Shown: positions 57,775-61,825 of the stretch, one piece after another
How the letters are laid out: each line of letters opens with the position of its first letter
Position numbering within the stretch: the first letter of the stretch is position 1
Source: Planctomycetota bacterium
Lineage (GTDB): Bacteria; Planctomycetota; J058
Direction of reading: 5' to 3'
Assembly (NCBI GenBank): GCA_016765095.1
Contig: JAESQQ010000719.1
Span: 5,647-69,646 of the forward strand
Length of the DNA: 64,000 bases
Notes under the pieces: model-generated
Database searches by the model: none
The model's input: only the letters and a program-made list of their open reading frames with translations
Told to the model about the DNA's origin: nothing
Translations under genes and position numbers: made by a program

Positions 57775-59019
57775 GTGGGAAACGAGATCGTAGTCGTCGA
57801 AGTCGACGAAGCAGCCCGAGACCTCGTGACTCGCCTCCTGGCCGGACGCGGGCACGCTGTTGAGGCCTTCGCCTCCCTTGGCCAGGCGCGCAGCCACCTC
57901 GAGGGCGCCCCCCCTCCTGCGCTGGTCGTGATCGGCCTCGACCCTCCAGCCGAGGAGGGCCTCGAGCTGATCGCCGCGATCCAGAGCATCTACGGGCCCC
58001 GGACCCCGCCCGTGCTAGTCCTCTCTGGACTCACCTCGGAGGCGGACATTCTCCGCAGCTACGCCGCGGGCGCCGACGACTACCTGAGCAAGCCGCCCAA
58101 GCCACCTGAGCTGCAGGCCAAGGTCGCGGTCCTTATGGCCCGCAACCCGGGCTCGGCCGAGACCCAGCTCGACCCCGAGCTTCCCCGCAAGAACGGCCTC
58201 GACTTTGGTCGCTACGAGCGCCAGCGCGTCATCGGGAAGGGATCGTCCGGAACCGTCTACGAGGCTCGCGACACCGTCGAGCACCGTCCAGTGGCCCTCA
58301 AGGTCCTCTCCGCCCTCAAGAGCCAGCGAGCTGAGCACCGCTACCGCTTCTTGAGGGAGGCTTACGCCGTCACGGCGGTCGAACACCCAAGCGTCGTGCG
58401 CGTCTACGACTTCGGCGTCGAAGAGGGCAGGCTCTACTACAGCATGGAGCTCCTGAGCGGCCCCACGCTCGCGGCGAGGGTCGCTGAGGGACCCCTCAGC
58501 GTCGAGGAGACCCTCGAGCTCATGATCCCGATCGCAGAGGCCCTCGCGGCGCTCCAGCAGAGCGACCTCGTCCACCGAGACGTGAAGCCCACAAACGTCG
58601 TGCTCCGAGACGGGGCCCCGGGTCAGCCGGTCTTGATCGACTTCGGGCTCAGCAAGCTCAGCTTCGATCGCAGCCTGACCGGGCCCGGTGTCGTCTTGGG
58701 GACCGCGGCCTACCTGGCCCCTGAGGTCGTGTCTGGAGCTGAACACGACCAGCGCTCGGATCTCTACGCCCTGGGAATGCTGGCGCGCTTCGCGCTGACA
58801 GGAGAGGACCTCTGGTCCAACGTTGACCCCTGTACGGTCCTTCGCCGCCAGCTCTCCCTGGAGATCCCGCTCCCCGAGCTCCCGGCCTCCTTCCAAGCCG
58901 TGCTCAGGAAGCTCCTGGCTCCCGACCCCCAGGCGCGATATCAGCGAGGCGAGGACCTCGCCGCTGACCTGCGAGCGCTCCAGGCCGAGTCCGTCTCGCG
59001 CTCCCCGAAAGGGGCTTGA
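57775..59019 (+). CDS. Atypical receiver / Ser-Thr protein kinase fusion
   Basis: GTG start. The receiver-like N-terminus is IVVVEVDEAAR...LVVIGLDPPAEEG...YLSKP. Active kinase with IGKGSSGTVY, VALKVL, HRDVKPTNVVL, DFGLSK and GTAAYLAPE. Confidence 0.85.
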   Translation: MGNEIVVVEVDEAARDLVTRLLAGRGHAVEAFASLGQARSHLEGAPPPALVVIGLDPPAEEGLELIAAIQSIYGPRTPPVLVLSGLTSEADILRSYAAGADDYLSKPPKPPELQAKVAVLMARNPGSAETQLDPELPRKNGLDFGRYERQRVIGKGSSGTVYEARDTVEHRPVALKVLSALKSQRAEHRYRFLREAYAVTAVEHPSVVRVYDFGVEEGRLYYSMELLSGPTLAARVAEGPLSVEETLELMIPIAEALAALQQSDLVHRDVKPTNVVLRDGAPGQPVLIDFGLSKLSFDRSLTGPGVVLGTAAYLAPEVVSGAEHDQRSDLYALGMLARFALTGEDLWSNVDPCTVLRRQLSLEIPLPELPASFQAVLRKLLAPDPQARYQRGEDLAADLRALQAESVSRSPKGA

Positions 59020-60242
59020 TGCCGCTCAGCGTCGTCGTCGTCGAAGACGAGCCAGCCGTCCAGGACCTGATCCGCGACGTGCTCGAGAGCCGGGGATACC
59101 TCGTCAGGGTCTTCGGCTCGGCGGGGGCGGCCTGGACCCACCTCCGCGCCCACCGCCCGAGCCTGCTCCTCGTCGACGTCGGCCTCCCAGACGAGAGCGG
59201 GCTCGATCTGCTCCGCCGGCTCCGCTGCCTCCACGGCGGAAACAGCTACCCGGCCCTAATCGTCTCGGGGCATAAGTCCGAACAGGACATTCTCCTGGGC
59301 TACGAGGCGGGCGGGGACGAGTATCTGACCAAGCCCTTCTCCAGCGGGGAGCTCCTCGCCAAGTGCGCCGTCTTGATCGCGCGGAGTCCGTCCGCGAGAG
59401 AGACGCAAGTCCGCCTCACCGACGCGGAGGCGCCGCTCTTCGAGCGGTATGAGGTCAACGGGATCCTGGGACGAGGAGCGTTCGGCGTCGTCTATCACGC
59501 CCTCGATCTGCGCAACGCGAAGCGCGAGGTAGCCCTCAAGGTCTGCGGTCAGGAGGTCGCTCACGACGCAGAGCACCGCTTCCGTTTCCTCCGTGAGTCC
59601 TACGCCCTCGCCAGCCTCATTCACCCCCACATCGTGTCTGTGACCGACTTCGGCCTCCTCGACGACGAGCTCTACCTGGCCATGGACTACATCGAGGGAC
59701 CCACGCTCGCGAGCCACGTCAGGAAGCACGGAGCGCTCTCGACACTCGACGCCCTCGCCCTGTTTCGCGCGCTCGCCTCGGCGCTCCAAGCCCTGGCCAA
59801 GGCCTCGCTTGTACACCGCGACGTTAAGCCCGCGAACATTATCCTCCGACGAGGAGCGCCTGCTGACCCGGTGCTGGTCGATTTTGGGCTCGCCAAGCGC
59901 TCGCACGACCGCTCCGTGACCGCCAAGACCACCTTCCTGGGAACGATCGGCTACATGGCGCCTGAGATCTTCCTCGGGCAAGAAGCGAACGCGCGCAGCG
60001 ACTTGTTCTCACTCGGCCTCGTGCTGCGCTACGCCCTGACCGGCGAGGAGCTCTACCCACAGCTGCAAGGAGTGGCCCTGATGCTCCGCATGGCGCGGGG
60101 CGGAATTCCGATTCCGACCTGCGAGGCGCCGTGGATCGAGGAGATCTTGCGCAGCCTGCTCGCGAGCGATCCCGCCAAGCGCCCCGACTCCTCCCAAGCC
60201 GTCCTCAGCCTGCTCGCCGAGGCGGGCGTCGGCTCCCTATGA
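59016..60242 (+). CDS. Hybrid response regulator / Ser-Thr protein kinase
   Basis: The ATG overlaps the upstream stop (ATGA). Canonical REC with VVVVEDEPAV, LLLVDVGLPDESG and YLTKPF. Kinase with LGRGAFGVVY, VALKV, HRDVKPANIIL, DFGLAK and GTIGYMAPE. Confidence 0.9.
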   Translation: MMPLSVVVVEDEPAVQDLIRDVLESRGYLVRVFGSAGAAWTHLRAHRPSLLLVDVGLPDESGLDLLRRLRCLHGGNSYPALIVSGHKSEQDILLGYEAGGDEYLTKPFSSGELLAKCAVLIARSPSARETQVRLTDAEAPLFERYEVNGILGRGAFGVVYHALDLRNAKREVALKVCGQEVAHDAEHRFRFLRESYALASLIHPHIVSVTDFGLLDDELYLAMDYIEGPTLASHVRKHGALSTLDALALFRALASALQALAKASLVHRDVKPANIILRRGAPADPVLVDFGLAKRSHDRSVTAKTTFLGTIGYMAPEIFLGQEANARSDLFSLGLVLRYALTGEELYPQLQGVALMLRMARGGIPIPTCEAPWIEEILRSLLASDPAKRPDSSQAVLSLLAEAGVGSL

Positions 60243-61825
60243 GCGACGCGCCCCTGCCTCGTCTCCGAGGGTACGAGGTCCTCAAGGACCTCGGCCCGAG
60301 TCGCTTGGGTCGAGCCTATCGGGCGAAGCACCTCGTCCTCGGCCGCGTCGTCCTGGTCAAGATCCTCGACCCAGACCTGATCAGCGATCCCGAGGAGCGG
60401 CAGCGCTTCCTCCGGGGCGCGGCCGCGACGGTCAAGCTGCGCCATGAGAACGTCGTCAGCCTATACGCATTCGAGACCGACCCCGAGACAGGTCGCGAGT
60501 TCGTCGCGCTCGAGTTCGTCGAGGGATCGTCCCTCGAGGATGTCCTCGCGCAGGGTCCCCTCGAGGAGACCCGAGCCCTCGCGATCGCGATTGGGCTCGC
60601 CCGCGCCCTCGCGTGCTTGGAGGAGCACGGCTACGTCCACCGCTACCTCACGCCGCACACGGTCTTGTTGACGGAGCGCGGCTCGCCCAAGCTGAGCGAC
60701 CTCGGCCTGGTCAAGCCAGCCTACGACCGGCACCTGACCGGGCCCAACAAGATCCTCGGGAGTGAGAACTACATGGCGCCCGAGCAGGCGCTCGGCCTCC
60801 CGTTGGACTCCCGGGCGGACCTCTTTTCGCTAGGCGTCCTGCTCTTCGAAATGCTCACCGGCCGGCTCCCTCCTCGCCCACCCGAAGTGCCCGACCCGCG
60901 TCTGATCGCGTCGATCACGGACGTCTCCGCGAAGCTGGTCCTGCGGCTCTGCGCGCAGGCTCCGGCGGGGCGCTTCCCCAGCGCCCGCGAGGCGCTCGAG
61001 GCCCTCGAAGGAGTCGCGGCCAGCGTGACCGCCCTCAACCCCGCTCAGACGGCCGACCTCGCTCGCTTCCTGCTCGAGAGCCGCCCCGCCTGGCGCAGCC
61101 CCCGCCTCCGCGTTCACGTCCAGCTCCCCGACAAGAAGCCAAGAGAGCGCCTCCTCGAAGGCGAGACGATCACGGTCGGACGCGCCCCAGGCTGCGAGCT
61201 TCGACTGGACACGCAGTTCGTCTCCCGTCGACATGCACAGTTCCAGTGGCAGGGAGAGGTCCTCTGGCTCCTGCCCCTCTCCAAGACGAACGCCACGGCC
61301 GTCAACGGTCGGGAGATCACCTCGCCCGTCCCGGTCCACCCCGGCGACGAGATCGGCCTCTCGGAGCGGGCGATCGTGCGAATCGACTGGACGCCCTCGG
61401 AGAAGAGCGCGAAGGCTAAGCGCCCAGACTCCCACCACGACATCTCCGCGCTCCTTGGGTTGGAGGCTAAACAAGTCGCCAAGGACGGCGCGACGCAGAG
61501 CGTCGTGATGCCTCCCGCCGGAGAACACAGCCACCCCAAGCCTGCCAGACCGCGGCTCGTGAGGCTCGACACCCGGGAGTCACTCCCCCTCTCACCGCTC
61601 GTTCAGGCCGGCAGCTCGACGAGCTGTCCGCTGCGGCTTCCCCCCGAGGCGCCTCGCAAGGCGCTGGTCGTGTTCGCGACGCCCGAGGGCGTGTGGCTCC
61701 TGAACGTCTGCCCAGACGCCGGCGCAGTCCACGTCAACGCCGAACCAATCAGCGACAAGGCCAAGCTGCAAGCCGGCGACACGATCGCGCTCTACGGAGT
61801 CGAACTCAAACTCAGGACCGACTAG
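60239..61825 (+). CDS. Ser/Thr-kinase-like pseudokinase with two C-terminal FHA domains
   Basis: Start at MSDAPLPRLRGYEVL (ATGA overlap with the upstream kinase). HRD is replaced by HRYLTP, DFG by DLG, and the Gly-loop is degenerate. FHA1 is ITVGRAPGCELRLDTQFVSRRHAQF...NGREI. FHA2 is ALVVFATPEGVWLLNV...VNAEPI. Confidence 0.8.
   Translation: MSDAPLPRLRGYEVLKDLGPSRLGRAYRAKHLVLGRVVLVKILDPDLISDPEERQRFLRGAAATVKLRHENVVSLYAFETDPETGREFVALEFVEGSSLEDVLAQGPLEETRALAIAIGLARALACLEEHGYVHRYLTPHTVLLTERGSPKLSDLGLVKPAYDRHLTGPNKILGSENYMAPEQALGLPLDSRADLFSLGVLLFEMLTGRLPPRPPEVPDPRLIASITDVSAKLVLRLCAQAPAGRFPSAREALEALEGVAASVTALNPAQTADLARFLLESRPAWRSPRLRVHVQLPDKKPRERLLEGETITVGRAPGCELRLDTQFVSRRHAQFQWQGEVLWLLPLSKTNATAVNGREITSPVPVHPGDEIGLSERAIVRIDWTPSEKSAKAKRPDSHHDISALLGLEAKQVAKDGATQSVVMPPAGEHSHPKPARPRLVRLDTRESLPLSPLVQAGSSTSCPLRLPPEAPRKALVVFATPEGVWLLNVCPDAGAVHVNAEPISDKAKLQAGDTIALYGVELKLRTD

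Follow-up and report, generated by a model that had tools for sequence, protein, structure and literature searches.

The window analysed here, a 64,000-nucleotide stretch of DNA from a Planctomycetota bacterium, carries a trio of genes on the plus strand. All three open reading frames of the initial annotation (57775..59019, 59016..60242 and 60239..61825) are present: g1 (57775..59019) encodes a receiver-like domain and an intact Hanks Ser/Thr kinase, g2 (59019, or 59016, to 60242) a canonical receiver and an intact Hanks kinase, and g3 (60239..61825) a 528-aa protein composed of a pseudokinase domain, an FHA domain (FHA1), a disordered linker and a degenerate FHA domain (FHA2). An ATGA overlap had been described for both junctions. 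This was true of g2/g3, where the ATG of g3 overlaps the stop codon of g2 (ATGA, 60239-60242); however, the g1/g2 junction reads c-TTG-ATG-c. There, the TGA stop codon of g1 was read at 59017-59019, and g2 could start either at TTG 59016 (a 4-nt overlap, TTGA) or at ATG 59019, whose first base is common to the g1 stop codon (a 1-nt overlap, TGATG). The N-termini of g2 orthologs (MALR.., MPLR.., MGLK..) match ATG 59019 in the alignment, and this codon is probably the start of g2.

By Pfam domain content, g1 and g2 are the two receiver-kinases that had been proposed; however, the receiver of g1 has Gly54 at the position of the phospho-acceptor Asp. In g1, we observed a REC domain at residues 5-117 (57787..58125, +; E 1.3e-13) and a Pkinase domain at residues 147-390 (58213..58944, +; E 4e-39), the latter with complete motifs (GKGSSG, VALK, RFLRE, HRDVKPTN, DFG and APE). 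In an alignment with orthologs, Gly54 replaces the acceptor Asp and Val10 falls in the acidic pair, whereas the g1 orthologs retain the acceptor Asp; judged by this alignment, the g1 receiver is degenerate in the window genome. The g2 receiver (about 59031..59363, +; REC, E 6e-23) has E9/D10, the acceptor D53, S83 and K105, and is followed by an intact Hanks kinase (about 59448..60203, +; Pkinase, E 1e-43). The linker of the REC-kinases contains an [ED]-T-[QT] motif, with inconsistent +3 residues around its Thr.

The pseudokinase domain of g3 (residues 12-262; 60272..61024, +) matched Pfam Pkinase at residues 12-212 (E 4e-29). The three changes reported earlier, HRD to HRY, DFG to DLG and a degenerate Gly-loop (GPSRLG), were all borne out, and we observed further losses: the alpha-C Glu is Gly60, the catalytic-loop Lys is Thr138 and the Asn is Thr141. 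An alignment to PknB, g1 and g2, ungapped through the catalytic loop, confirmed that the catalytic Asp is lost; the HRD Asp is replaced by Y136, and relative to PknB, Y136 pairs with D138, T138 with K140, T141 with N143 and G60 with E59. We looked in this alignment for a shifted Asp or Asn and found neither, and no Asp or Asn lies between H134 and D154 of g3. Among eight g3 orthologs, the HRD Asp position is occupied by Y, L, F, R or H, the LTPHT, GPSRLG and RFLRG motifs near it are conserved, and four catalytic or regulatory residues are jointly absent in every one (8/8). Retained in g3 are K41, which is the ATP-site Lys, D154 of the DLG motif and APE; the activation-loop Thr167 lies at the position of PknB Thr171 and is Ser in one ortholog. 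The DLG motif had been counted as a sign of inactivity, but it is no evidence of this because active-looking relatives carry DLG too. Moreover, since K41 and D154 are kept, nucleotide binding, and even weak activity, is possible for g3. On these sequence features, g3 is a genuine, conserved pseudokinase with a full Hanks kinase fold, and its pseudokinase domain is under purifying selection. Grouping of the g3 kinase domain as a duplicate of g1/g2 received 1.5% bootstrap support; as it is not such a duplicate, the argument from paired paralogs falls.

Both FHA domains attributed to g3 have the FHA fold; however, only FHA1 keeps the canonical pThr-binding residues. Pfam gave a single FHA match in g3, at residues 311-374 (E 1e-17). 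FHA1 (residues 289-383; 61103..61387, +) has R315 (GR), S329/H332 (SRRH) and T350/N351; its pThr-binding residues are invariant in nine family members, and GR, SRxH and TN are invariant across 27 superfamily members. These residues mark FHA1 as a canonical pThr-binding domain and the predicted reader. The last 91 residues of g3, which make up FHA2 (residues 438-528; 61550..61822, +), had no Pfam match even at E<=10. Their FHA fold, the lack of which had been named as the refuting case, held in profile searches and in a structure check by AF2/Foldseek: hhalign matched FHA2 to FHA1 (96.2% probability, E 2e-9), a PDB profile search returned FHA domains exclusively, the AF2 model had a pLDDT of 96.5, and the top 50 Foldseek matches were all FHA domains (best TM 0.8-0.87), with GarA/OdhI among the closest and Rad53 and Chk2 FHA structures also among the matches. 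The pThr triad of FHA2 is replaced: GR is G458-S459, SRxH is P472-R473-K474-A475 and TN is variable; 27 proteins share the conserved PRKA motif. The binding loops of FHA2 have been rebuilt around an invariant PRKA, and pThr reading is predicted for FHA1 only.

The linker between the two FHA domains (residues 384-437; 61388..61549, +) was modelled at low confidence (AF2 pLDDT <50 at residues 387-435) and is the least conserved region of g3, with a mean ortholog identity of 0.18. Within it are a patch of acidic residues and two motifs, S-[IV]-x-x-L-LGL and a semi-conserved [AE]-T-x-[SD] with a hydrophobic residue after it, which in the window reads T419-Q-S-V; this T-x-x-hydrophobic motif is found in 7/8 g3 orthologs and is absent in P0004. 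Its Thr may be a phospho-site. Mean pairwise identity among g3 orthologs was 0.58 for the pseudokinase, 0.51 for FHA1, 0.54 for FHA2 and 0.18-0.36 for the linkers. The full-length AF2 model had a pTM of 0.49 and is therefore silent on the arrangement of the domains.

We compared six loci that bear a g3 ortholog. A g2-type REC-kinase lies directly upstream of the g3 ortholog in 6/6, and the genes always overlap: by 4 nt in the window, L001/L002, L003, L004 and the P0002 contig, and by 1 nt in L005. Adjacency and overlap of g2 and g3 are kept at 47-68% protein identity despite differing flanking genes, and the orthologs of the two genes pair one-to-one on the same contigs (58-63% identity for g2). 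In contrast, g1 is missing from one locus and does not overlap g2 in two others. The conserved partner of g3 is g2, and not the g1 and g2 pair. More widely, a Planctomycetota family shares the order kinase or pseudokinase, FHA, linker and a 'PRKA' FHA, and this 'PRKA' FHA family includes active-looking and independently degenerated members. We found no REC-kinase adjacent to paralogs in this family that differ in kinase state.

The window is dense in signalling genes from about 25 to 63 kb (4 REC-kinases, 6 hybrid histidine kinases and an enhancer-binding protein). Convergent with g3 is a hybrid histidine kinase (61822..63420, −; PAS, HisKA, HATPase_c and REC by Pfam), whose stop codon overlaps that of g3 in the palindrome CTAG (61822-61825). 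Orthologs of it adjoin the module in two loci, with full-length identities of 51% (L001) and 49% (L004), and a histidine kinase of the same domain architecture was present in 5/6 loci, although none is adjacent to the module in L003. This kinase is probably the phosphodonor pathway for the REC-kinases. Upstream of g1 and divergently transcribed is a stand-alone receiver of 120 aa (57025..57387, −; Pfam REC, E 5e-25), and the gene tables of the other loci list none next to the module. A trypsin-like peptidase (56090..56803, −; Pfam Trypsin_2) has a lipoprotein-type signal, LLLLLSSGC; the listed ORF extends to 56989, and the signal peptide begins at an internal Met. The peptidase recurs near the module: the one here has 35% identity to the L001 neighbour, and the P0002 contig also carries a Trypsin_2-family gene. 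A sigma-54 enhancer-binding protein (25097..26728, +; weak GAF-like N-terminus, AAA+ and HTH) lies 31 kb from the trio in the window. Its ortholog (50% identity, full length) is directly beside the trio in L001, and in L005 and on the P0002 contig the trio adjoins activators of the same architecture; we regard this protein as a candidate output of the module.

We modestly favour the reading that g3 is a non-catalytic, pThr-reading partner of the upstream REC-kinase g2, often joined by g1. A pseudokinase, a canonical FHA1 and tight linkage to an upstream kinase fit a docking or adaptor role, from which we infer a scaffold mechanism. A His-Asp phosphorelay from the hybrid histidine kinase, via an Hpt carrier, would phosphorylate Asp53 of the g2 receiver and switch on the kinase domain, and the kinase, once active, would phosphorylate Thr residues of its own chain and/or of g3. 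The candidates are the Thr of the activation loop (T167 of g3 and the corresponding g2 residue), the [ED]-T-[QT] motif of the REC-kinase linker and T419 of g3, although T167, T419 and the linker Thr are only semi-conserved. FHA1 would bind this pThr, so that g3 and the kinase assemble only while the pathway is active. Interaction surfaces that do not depend on phosphorylation would be provided by the pseudokinase domain and FHA2; these could lock the kinase in one state or bring in a downstream target, most obviously the recurrent sigma-54 activator.

A possible but rather unlikely alternative is that g3 is mainly a substrate of the REC-kinases and works as a phospho-switch. Such a mechanism is established for GarA/OdhI, bacterial FHA proteins in which Hanks kinases phosphorylate an N-terminal Thr motif that is then bound by the protein's own FHA domain. 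In g3, FHA1 would capture pThr at T167 or T419 of its own chain, and this would toggle FHA1, or else the surfaces of the pseudokinase and FHA2, between a closed form and a free form that binds a target in metabolism or transcription. The canonical FHA1, the flexible linker with T419-Q-S-V or its like in 7/8 orthologs, the activation-loop Thr conserved at the PknB T171 position and the GarA-type structures among the nearest fold matches are consistent with this. However, P0004 lacks the linker motif, which sits in the part of g3 with the lowest conservation (identity 0.18), and a switch leaves the retention of a well-conserved pseudokinase and a second FHA-fold domain unexplained. GarA/OdhI are single-domain proteins of about 140-160 aa without a kinase fold, and regulate TCA-cycle enzymes in Actinobacteria. 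A phospho-switch and an adaptor are compatible and not mutually exclusive.

We consider it unlikely that the g3 pseudokinase and the g2 kinase form an allosteric heterodimer, as in KSR-RAF or STRAD-LKB1, that sets g2 activity independently of pThr while the FHA domains only bring substrates. The tight, conserved g2-g3 overlap suggests co-production, no other part of g3 is as conserved as the pseudokinase, and K41 and D154 would permit a nucleotide-bound, 'active-like' conformation. A by-eye comparison with the PknB back-to-back dimer gave a mixed picture: the equivalent of Leu33 is conserved in g3, whereas those of Arg10 and Asp76 are not. It is quite improbable that g3 is still an enzyme, either an atypical kinase or a nucleotide-dependent transferase with relocated residues (as WNK, CASK and SelO). 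The protein does keep K41, the DLG Asp and APE, and the strict conservation of the catalytic-loop T138-P-H140-T141 implies constraint beyond folding; against this, H134 to D154 is devoid of Asp and Asn, the catalytic-base position varies, and the four residues are lost together in all eight orthologs. That the genes are functionally unrelated and overlap merely through compact packing in a signalling-rich island is barely credible: the window is full of unrelated-looking signalling genes from about 25 to 63 kb, but the g2-g3 overlap persists at 47-68% identity across six loci with differing flanks, the two orthologs co-occur one-to-one, and g3 paralogs have no REC-kinase neighbour.

An adaptor of this kind can be set beside several known systems. 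In M. tuberculosis, PknB phosphorylates the tail of the MviN pseudokinase, which recruits the FHA protein FhaA (PMC12599244), likewise combining an active Hanks kinase, a phosphorylated pseudokinase platform and a pThr-reading FHA domain. However, these are separate proteins, whereas g3 joins pseudokinase and FHA in one cytoplasmic chain; the MviN pseudokinase, a member of the actinobacterial ActPs3 family, is joined to a lipid II flippase and has no Lys, Asp or DFG, whereas g3 keeps the Lys and the DLG Asp; and the g2 kinase, unlike PknB, is gated by a receiver. We detected no specific homology of g3 to PknB/MviN/FhaA beyond the shared folds. In the T7SSb, the YukC pseudokinase (YukC/EssB) and the tandem, degenerate FHA domains of YukB (YukB/EssC) bind each other without phosphorylation (PMC9600267), again pairing a pseudokinase with FHA folds that lack pThr-binding residues, and by analogy YukC-YukB might be a model for what FHA2 does. 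Unlike the g3 module, it is a membrane secretion machine of Firmicutes in which both FHA domains are degenerate, has no upstream REC-kinase and is unrelated to g3 in sequence. Rad53/Chk2 (FHA-kinase-FHA or FHA-kinase) also carry kinase fold and FHA on one polypeptide, with pThr made by an upstream kinase and read by the FHA domains, but they are eukaryotic, catalytically active and differ in domain order, and both FHA domains of Rad53 bind pThr, unlike the prediction for g3.

Among bacteria, the STK pseudokinase families ActPs1-3, GLW, CP1, DYD and DLHK (bioRxiv 10.1101/2025.01.12.632604; PMC12599244) resemble g3 in having a Hanks fold with degraded catalytic motifs conserved at the family level. 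In each of these seven families, some or all members have lost the VAIK Lys, and the families are reported mainly from Actinobacteria, Proteobacteria and Cyanobacteria, whereas g3 keeps the Lys and comes from Planctomycetota; C-terminal FHA domains have been described for none of them, whereas g3 has one canonical and one degenerate. Kinase and FHA on one chain is a long-known bacterial architecture, in cyanobacteria and Chloroflexus (PMC1262709), and in Planctomycetota FHA is one of the domains abundantly associated with STKs (PMC11032199). In the described fusions, however, a single N-terminal FHA domain with conserved GR/SxxH/NG is joined to a kinase presumed to be active; a pseudokinase state, a second degenerate FHA domain and coupling to a REC-kinase, all of which g3 has, are undescribed among them. 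Overall, g3 suggests an undescribed, if not revolutionary, adaptor that joins two-component and Ser/Thr signalling.

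Three forward-strand ORFs lie at the coordinates proposed in the initial annotation: two receiver-kinase genes (a receiver domain, REC, fused to a Ser/Thr kinase), here called g1 (57775..59019) and g2, followed by g3 (60239..61825), which encodes a 528-residue protein with a kinase-like domain, an FHA domain (FHA1), a linker and a degenerate C-terminal FHA fold (FHA2*). An ATGA overlap had been proposed for both junctions; it is present at g2/g3 (60239-60242) but not at g1/g2, which reads cTTGATGc. The g1 stop is TGA at 59017-59019, and g2 could start either at TTG 59016 (TTGA) or at ATG 59019 (TGATG). 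Because the ATG at 59019 matches the N-termini of orthologs in an alignment, we annotated g2 as 59019..60242; termination-reinitiation would be compatible with either start arrangement. For g2/g3, the stop/start overlap is conserved in orthologous loci, as expected of a predicted translationally coupled operon.

We detected no sigma-70-type promoter or intrinsic terminator inside the trio, and nothing between 56.9 and 63.6 kb exceeded the shuffled expectation in a scan for these two signals, which has low power in Planctomycetota. Matches to the sigma-54 promoter consensus were not enriched across the window (11 against 17 expected), whose G+C content ranges from 62 to 70%, and inspection by eye upstream of g1 found only a weak GG-N8-TTGC match. 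At the other end of the trio, the g3 stop (TAG, forward strand) and the stop of the convergent PAS hybrid histidine kinase (HK; 61822..63420, reverse strand; also TAG) share the CTAG palindrome at 61822..61825, so that a terminator cannot fit between them. The identical 4-nt convergent overlap occurs at L001, another locus with a g3 ortholog, but there it joins g3 to a sigma-54 activator gene. Long antisense ORFs lie opposite the histidine kinase (61693..63423, forward strand, 576 aa) and at 58015..58896 (reverse strand); we took ORFs that face real genes in this way as high-G+C artefacts rather than genes.

The g3 protein matches the Hanks fold (PF00069, 102.1 bits against a cutoff of 31.7). 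In a phmmer comparison with PDB sequences, residues 12-211 aligned to PknB without gaps across the beta3 strand, the alpha-C helix and the catalytic loop, the sole gap noted being one of 2 residues in the early activation loop, and BLASTP of g3 against g1 and g2 gave the same register. The ATP-site Lys (K41; PknB K40), the metal-binding Asp of DLG (D154; PknB D156) and the activation-loop Thr (T167; PknB T171) are kept. The alpha-C Glu (G60; PknB E59), the catalytic base (Y136; PknB D138), the catalytic-loop Lys (T138; PknB K140) and the Mg-binding Asn (T141; PknB N143) are lost. Tyr136 aligns ungapped with the HRD Asp of PknB, g1 and g2, confirming the loss of this residue proposed in the initial annotation. 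We considered, and rejected, a catalytic Asp or Asn that had merely shifted: the alignments are ungapped, and the interval from H134 to D154 contains neither residue.

These losses extend to the orthologs. The HRD Asp is missing from all of P0001-P0009 (g3 family proteins), which carry Y, L, F, R or H instead. Among the eight full-length orthologs (47-68% identity), LTPH[TS], which spans Thr138 and Thr141, is conserved in 8/8, as are GPSRLG and RFLRG; the last places Gly60 opposite the alpha-C Glu in every one, leaving the salt bridge between the beta3 Lys and the alpha-C Glu unmet even with Lys41 present. By the sequence definition of a pseudokinase (loss, conserved in orthologs, of at least one of the VAIK-Lys, HRD-Asp and DFG-Asp), g3 is a predicted pseudokinase. 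Inter-ortholog identity within g3 is highest in the kinase-like domain (0.58), which these comparisons indicate is kept by selection and is not decaying. The change from DFG to DLG, previously counted as a sign of a dead kinase, was set aside as non-diagnostic, since DLG is also found in relatives with complete catalytic motifs (P0012, P0136 and P0137). In a neighbor-joining tree of kinase domains, the g3 core clade and the group of all receiver-kinases were each recovered with 100% bootstrap. We rejected a local duplication of g1 or g2 as the origin of g3, given that the grouping of receiver-kinases with g3 received 1.5% bootstrap and that pairwise identity is only 38%.

The FHA1 domain (residues 289-383) is a textbook FHA domain: it matches PF00498 with an E-value of 1e-17 (64.7 bits against a cutoff of 20.7) and carries the pThr-binding residues R315 (GR), S329/H332 (SxxH) and T350/N351, of which R315, S329, H332 and N351 do not vary among nine family members. 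The last 91 residues of g3 (438-528) had no Pfam match at E<=10. We conclude that they nonetheless adopt an FHA fold because three independent tests agree. First, profile-profile alignment of FHA2* with FHA1 in hhalign gave 96.2% probability (E 2.3e-9). Second, the FHA2* profile retrieved only FHA domains from PDB sequences, among them those of EmbR, Ki-67, FhaA, GarA and EssC. Third, the AF2 model has a pLDDT of 96.5, and its top 50 Foldseek matches in the PDB are all FHA domains, the best with TM-scores of 0.8-0.87. The assignment of two FHA domains to g3 thus stands as far as the folds and the canonical FHA1 are concerned, but the pThr-contacting residues of the second are replaced: in the hhalign register, GR corresponds to G458-S459, SRxH to P472-R473-K474-A475, and TN to variable residues. 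Canonical pThr binding by FHA2* is unlikely on these substitutions. Because its conserved Arg-Lys pair occupies the usual ligand-binding face, an acidic or non-canonical ligand is possible.

Both upstream genes encode an N-terminal receiver and a C-terminal Hanks kinase (PF00069, 134.9 bits for g1 and 149.9 bits for g2, cutoff 31.7) with all catalytic motifs intact (GxGxxG, VALK, RFLRE, HRDVKPxN, DFG and APE). The receiver of g2 is canonical (PF00072, 81.6 bits), with E9/D10, the acceptor D53, S83 and K105. That of g1 scores 51.5 bits, yet Gly54 stands in its acceptor-Asp column and its acidic pair includes Val10. The description of the two genes as receiver-kinases therefore holds for their domains and intact kinases, but the g1 receiver is predicted to be dead in this genome, making g1 a putative pseudo-receiver fused to an intact kinase; with Gly54 in place of the acceptor Asp and Val10 in the acidic pair, phosphorylation of g1 at the canonical site is probably ruled out. 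The acceptor Asp is kept by the g1 orthologs in L001, L004 and L005, and the Gly54 change occurs in this genome alone among the four g1 sequences compared; around codon 54 (57934..57936), g1 reads VVIGLDPP where its orthologs have VDVGLPD. Such receiver-kinases are members of an extensive family of Planctomycetota paralogs, with >100 clusters among the matches listed.

We compared the arrangement in the window, where the trio is accompanied by the convergent PAS-HK-REC gene, a divergent stand-alone REC gene (57025..57387, reverse strand) and a trypsin-like lipoprotein gene, with that at other loci bearing g3 orthologs. At L001/L002, g1 and g2 overlap by 1 nt and g2 and g3 by 4 nt, and the neighbors are PAS hybrid HKs, a sigma-54 activator and a trypsin-like peptidase. 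The contig of P0002 has the trio with a 4-nt g2/g3 overlap, a convergent HK, an activator, a peptidase and a small FHA protein. The g1/g2 overlap is found only in the window and L001, and is replaced by a gap of 152 nt at L004 (trio with a 4-nt g2/g3 overlap and a convergent HK) and of 78 nt at L005 (trio with a 1-nt g2/g3 overlap, an activator and an HK). L003 has g2 and g3 only, overlapping by 4 nt, and no HK is adjacent. Together, g2 and g3 form the invariant core of the module, and true orthologs of g2, at 58-63% identity, share contigs with g3 orthologs. Full-length identities of 51% and 49% mark the hybrid HKs of different loci as orthologs, and the activator beside the L001 trio is 50% identical to that at 25097..26728 in the window. 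Trypsin_2-family genes recur beside the module at L001, where the peptidase is 35% identical to that of the window, and on the P0002 contig. In the window, translation of the trypsin-like ORF (56090..56989, reverse strand) probably starts downstream of the listed TTG, since its lipoprotein-type signal, LLLLLSSGC, begins at an internal Met near 56803.

The g3 protein belongs to a wider family with the architecture of a kinase-like domain, an FHA domain, a long low-complexity linker and a C-terminal FHA*. This family emerged when 1.84 billion representatives were searched exhaustively by profile, which yielded ~18 further clusters with full or nearly full end-to-end alignments; a word-indexed search with the C-terminal domain profile returned one fragment only. 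Across 27 proteins, the FHA1 motifs GR, SRxH and [ST]N are kept in nearly all (P0174 has SRRQ; P0138, P0140 and P0247 have AN or VN), and in FHA2* PRKA is almost invariant and TN occurs in none. The kinase-like domains range from apparently active, as judged by their motifs, in P0137, P0136 and P0135 (K, E, HRDxKxxN and DLG) to variously dead, with HRD changed to HGD, HGE, HGN, HRE or HRN and DFG to GLG, ELG, EVG or AIG. Because the kinase motifs vary while the FHA1 and FHA2* motifs stay, catalysis has probably decayed several times on a constant FHA-FHA* chassis.

We examined three paralogs, including one that shares an assembly with a g3 ortholog, and none has an adjacent receiver-kinase; the coupling to receiver-kinases is confined to the g3 subclade, a group with 100% bootstrap. 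A family-alignment scan of genome contigs with a generic kinase peptide pattern gave only unrelated kinases among the matches listed (30-42% identity). No named NCBIfam family applies, since only generic kinase, response-regulator and FHA models matched, all far under their cutoffs. The database protein identical to g3, from a Planctomycetota MAG, is annotated solely as "protein kinase", and all named g3 relatives come from Planctomycetota MAGs. A 407-residue metagenomic protein, P0082, differs in architecture, with an N-terminal FHA domain and a kinase-like domain bearing HRN, DLM and RFIRG; it has the g3-like change of the alpha-C Glu to Gly, yet falls outside the g3 cluster in the tree.

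The trio stands at the right-hand end of a ~38 kb signalling island that includes the sigma-54 activator (25097..26728, forward strand), a second receiver-kinase pair (27681..29111 and 29115..30308, forward strand) and five large hybrid histidine kinases in a row (30286..47660), two of them (30286..33813 and 44889..47660) with Hpt domains; the HK convergent to the trio is the sixth. The five have PAS, GAF, MASE3 and 4HB/CHASE3-like sensors and 2-4 receivers each, and may serve as Hpt donors to the receiver-kinases. In the kinase-domain tree, the two genes of the second pair group with g1 and g2, respectively, and no pseudokinase gene succeeds them. Each pair combines one canonical and one degenerate receiver; in the second pair the degenerate one is in the second gene (29115..30308), where the acidic pair is lost and Arg replaces the conserved Lys. 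An ORF without a significant Pfam domain (26875..27666, forward strand) lies upstream of this pair, and CGGCACGATTCCTGCT (26756..26771, forward strand), in the intergenic stretch that separates the activator gene from the operon of the pair, fits the sigma-54 -24/-12 consensus with 2 mismatches, a pattern that is not enriched window-wide. Elsewhere in the window, tandem ATP-grasp genes (53499..54725 and 54725..55948, reverse strand) overlap by one base and precede an esterase gene (51419..53578, reverse strand) with an enterochelin-esterase-like N-terminal region; they may form a small peptide- or siderophore-related cassette separate from the trio. A gene for an HD_5, receiver and DUF4388 protein (7367..8911, reverse strand) adjoins that of a weak HD-domain protein (8968..10497, reverse strand), the ORF at 10494..12155 has a sub-threshold HEAT_2 match only, and the large ORFs at 16520..18238 and 18235..20148 have no Pfam match at E<=0.05.

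We propose that the PAS hybrid HK, via an Hpt carrier, would phosphorylate D53 of g2 and thereby switch on the g2 kinase, that pThr would then be made on g2, g1 and/or g3, and that FHA1 of g3 would bind it. The pseudokinase domain and FHA2* are probably phosphorylation-independent surfaces, which would hold the kinase or recruit an output. The earlier idea of a scaffold that docks onto the upstream kinases or their substrates is reasonable once reframed in this way, with g2 as partner and FHA1 as reader. There are three candidate phospho-sites: the activation-loop Thr, found without exception in the receiver-kinases and in 7/8 g3 orthologs; [ED]-T-[QT] in the receiver-kinase linker (T129 of g2), with no consistent FHA +3 preference; and [AE]-T-x-[SD]-hydrophobic in the g3 linker (T419), where the +3 residue is V, L or A and only moderately consistent. 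Kinase activation loops can reportedly serve as docking sites for FHA proteins, from work on GarA and PknB.

With both a canonical FHA1 and a candidate Thr in its own linker, g3 could instead work as a GarA-like intramolecular switch, which we consider possible if rather unlikely; it is compatible with the adaptor model. Also compatible with that model is a KSR/STRAD-like allosteric dimer formed through the conserved kinase-like domain, to which we give a low probability. Inspection by eye of the positions that form the N-lobe dimer interface of PknB gave a mixed picture for g3, which conserves the counterpart of Leu33 and not those of Arg10 and Asp76. Residual atypical catalysis by g3, which retains K41 and D154 and lacks the base, the catalytic-loop Lys and the Asn, is very improbable. 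Mere adjacency of the genes is hardly credible beside an invariant g2 and g3 core. The adaptor model could be carried further, to an undescribed three-tier relay in which a PAS hybrid HK acts through an Hpt carrier on a receiver-kinase, pThr is written, a dedicated co-translated adaptor reads it, and the recurrent GAF-like sigma-54 activator is controlled by the adaptor's pseudokinase and rebuilt PRKA FHA domain, as output surfaces that need no phosphorylation; this extension is speculative and on balance doubtful.

Each ingredient has known precedent. PknB phosphorylates the tail of the MviN pseudokinase, which recruits FhaA (PMC12599244), and the pseudokinase YukC needs no phosphorylation to bind the two degenerate FHA domains that YukB carries in tandem (PMC9600267). 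N-terminal FHA-kinase fusions have been known in cyanobacteria since 2005 (PMC1262709), and FHA is a common partner domain of Planctomycetota Ser/Thr kinases (PMC11032199). An atlas of bacterial Ser/Thr kinases and its companion review define seven pseudokinase families, all with changes at the VAIK-Lys, none described from Planctomycetota and none with an FHA tail (10.1101/2025.01.12.632604; PMC12599244). Judged by these descriptions, g3 would fall outside ActPs1-3, GLW, CP1, DYD and DLHK, given its retained Lys, its FHA tail and its Planctomycetota origin. We found no description of a kinase-FHA-FHA* family, a PRKA variant of FHA or a receiver-kinase/pseudokinase pair in a literature search of incomplete coverage.

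The impact of these findings is limited because of those precedents and because the organisms are uncultured. Studied bacterial pseudokinases are few, and the locus is a compact, conserved and all-cytoplasmic gene set that would hard-wire His-Asp to Ser/Thr phosphorylation. It brings together a Hanks kinase gated by a receiver, a partner that joins a dead kinase to a pThr reader, and an orthologous sensor histidine kinase, so that three or four soluble proteins would suffice for direct in vitro tests of cross-talk between the two main phosphorylation systems of bacteria. Our analyses also define a family in which the FHA tail is constant and the kinase domain appears to have degenerated repeatedly, and a distinct FHA subclass with PRKA where SRxH is expected. 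If the three-tier relay were true, the PRKA-type FHA would be a new subclass of FHA domain that binds a non-pThr ligand, shared throughout a Planctomycetota family that includes kinases and pseudokinases alike.
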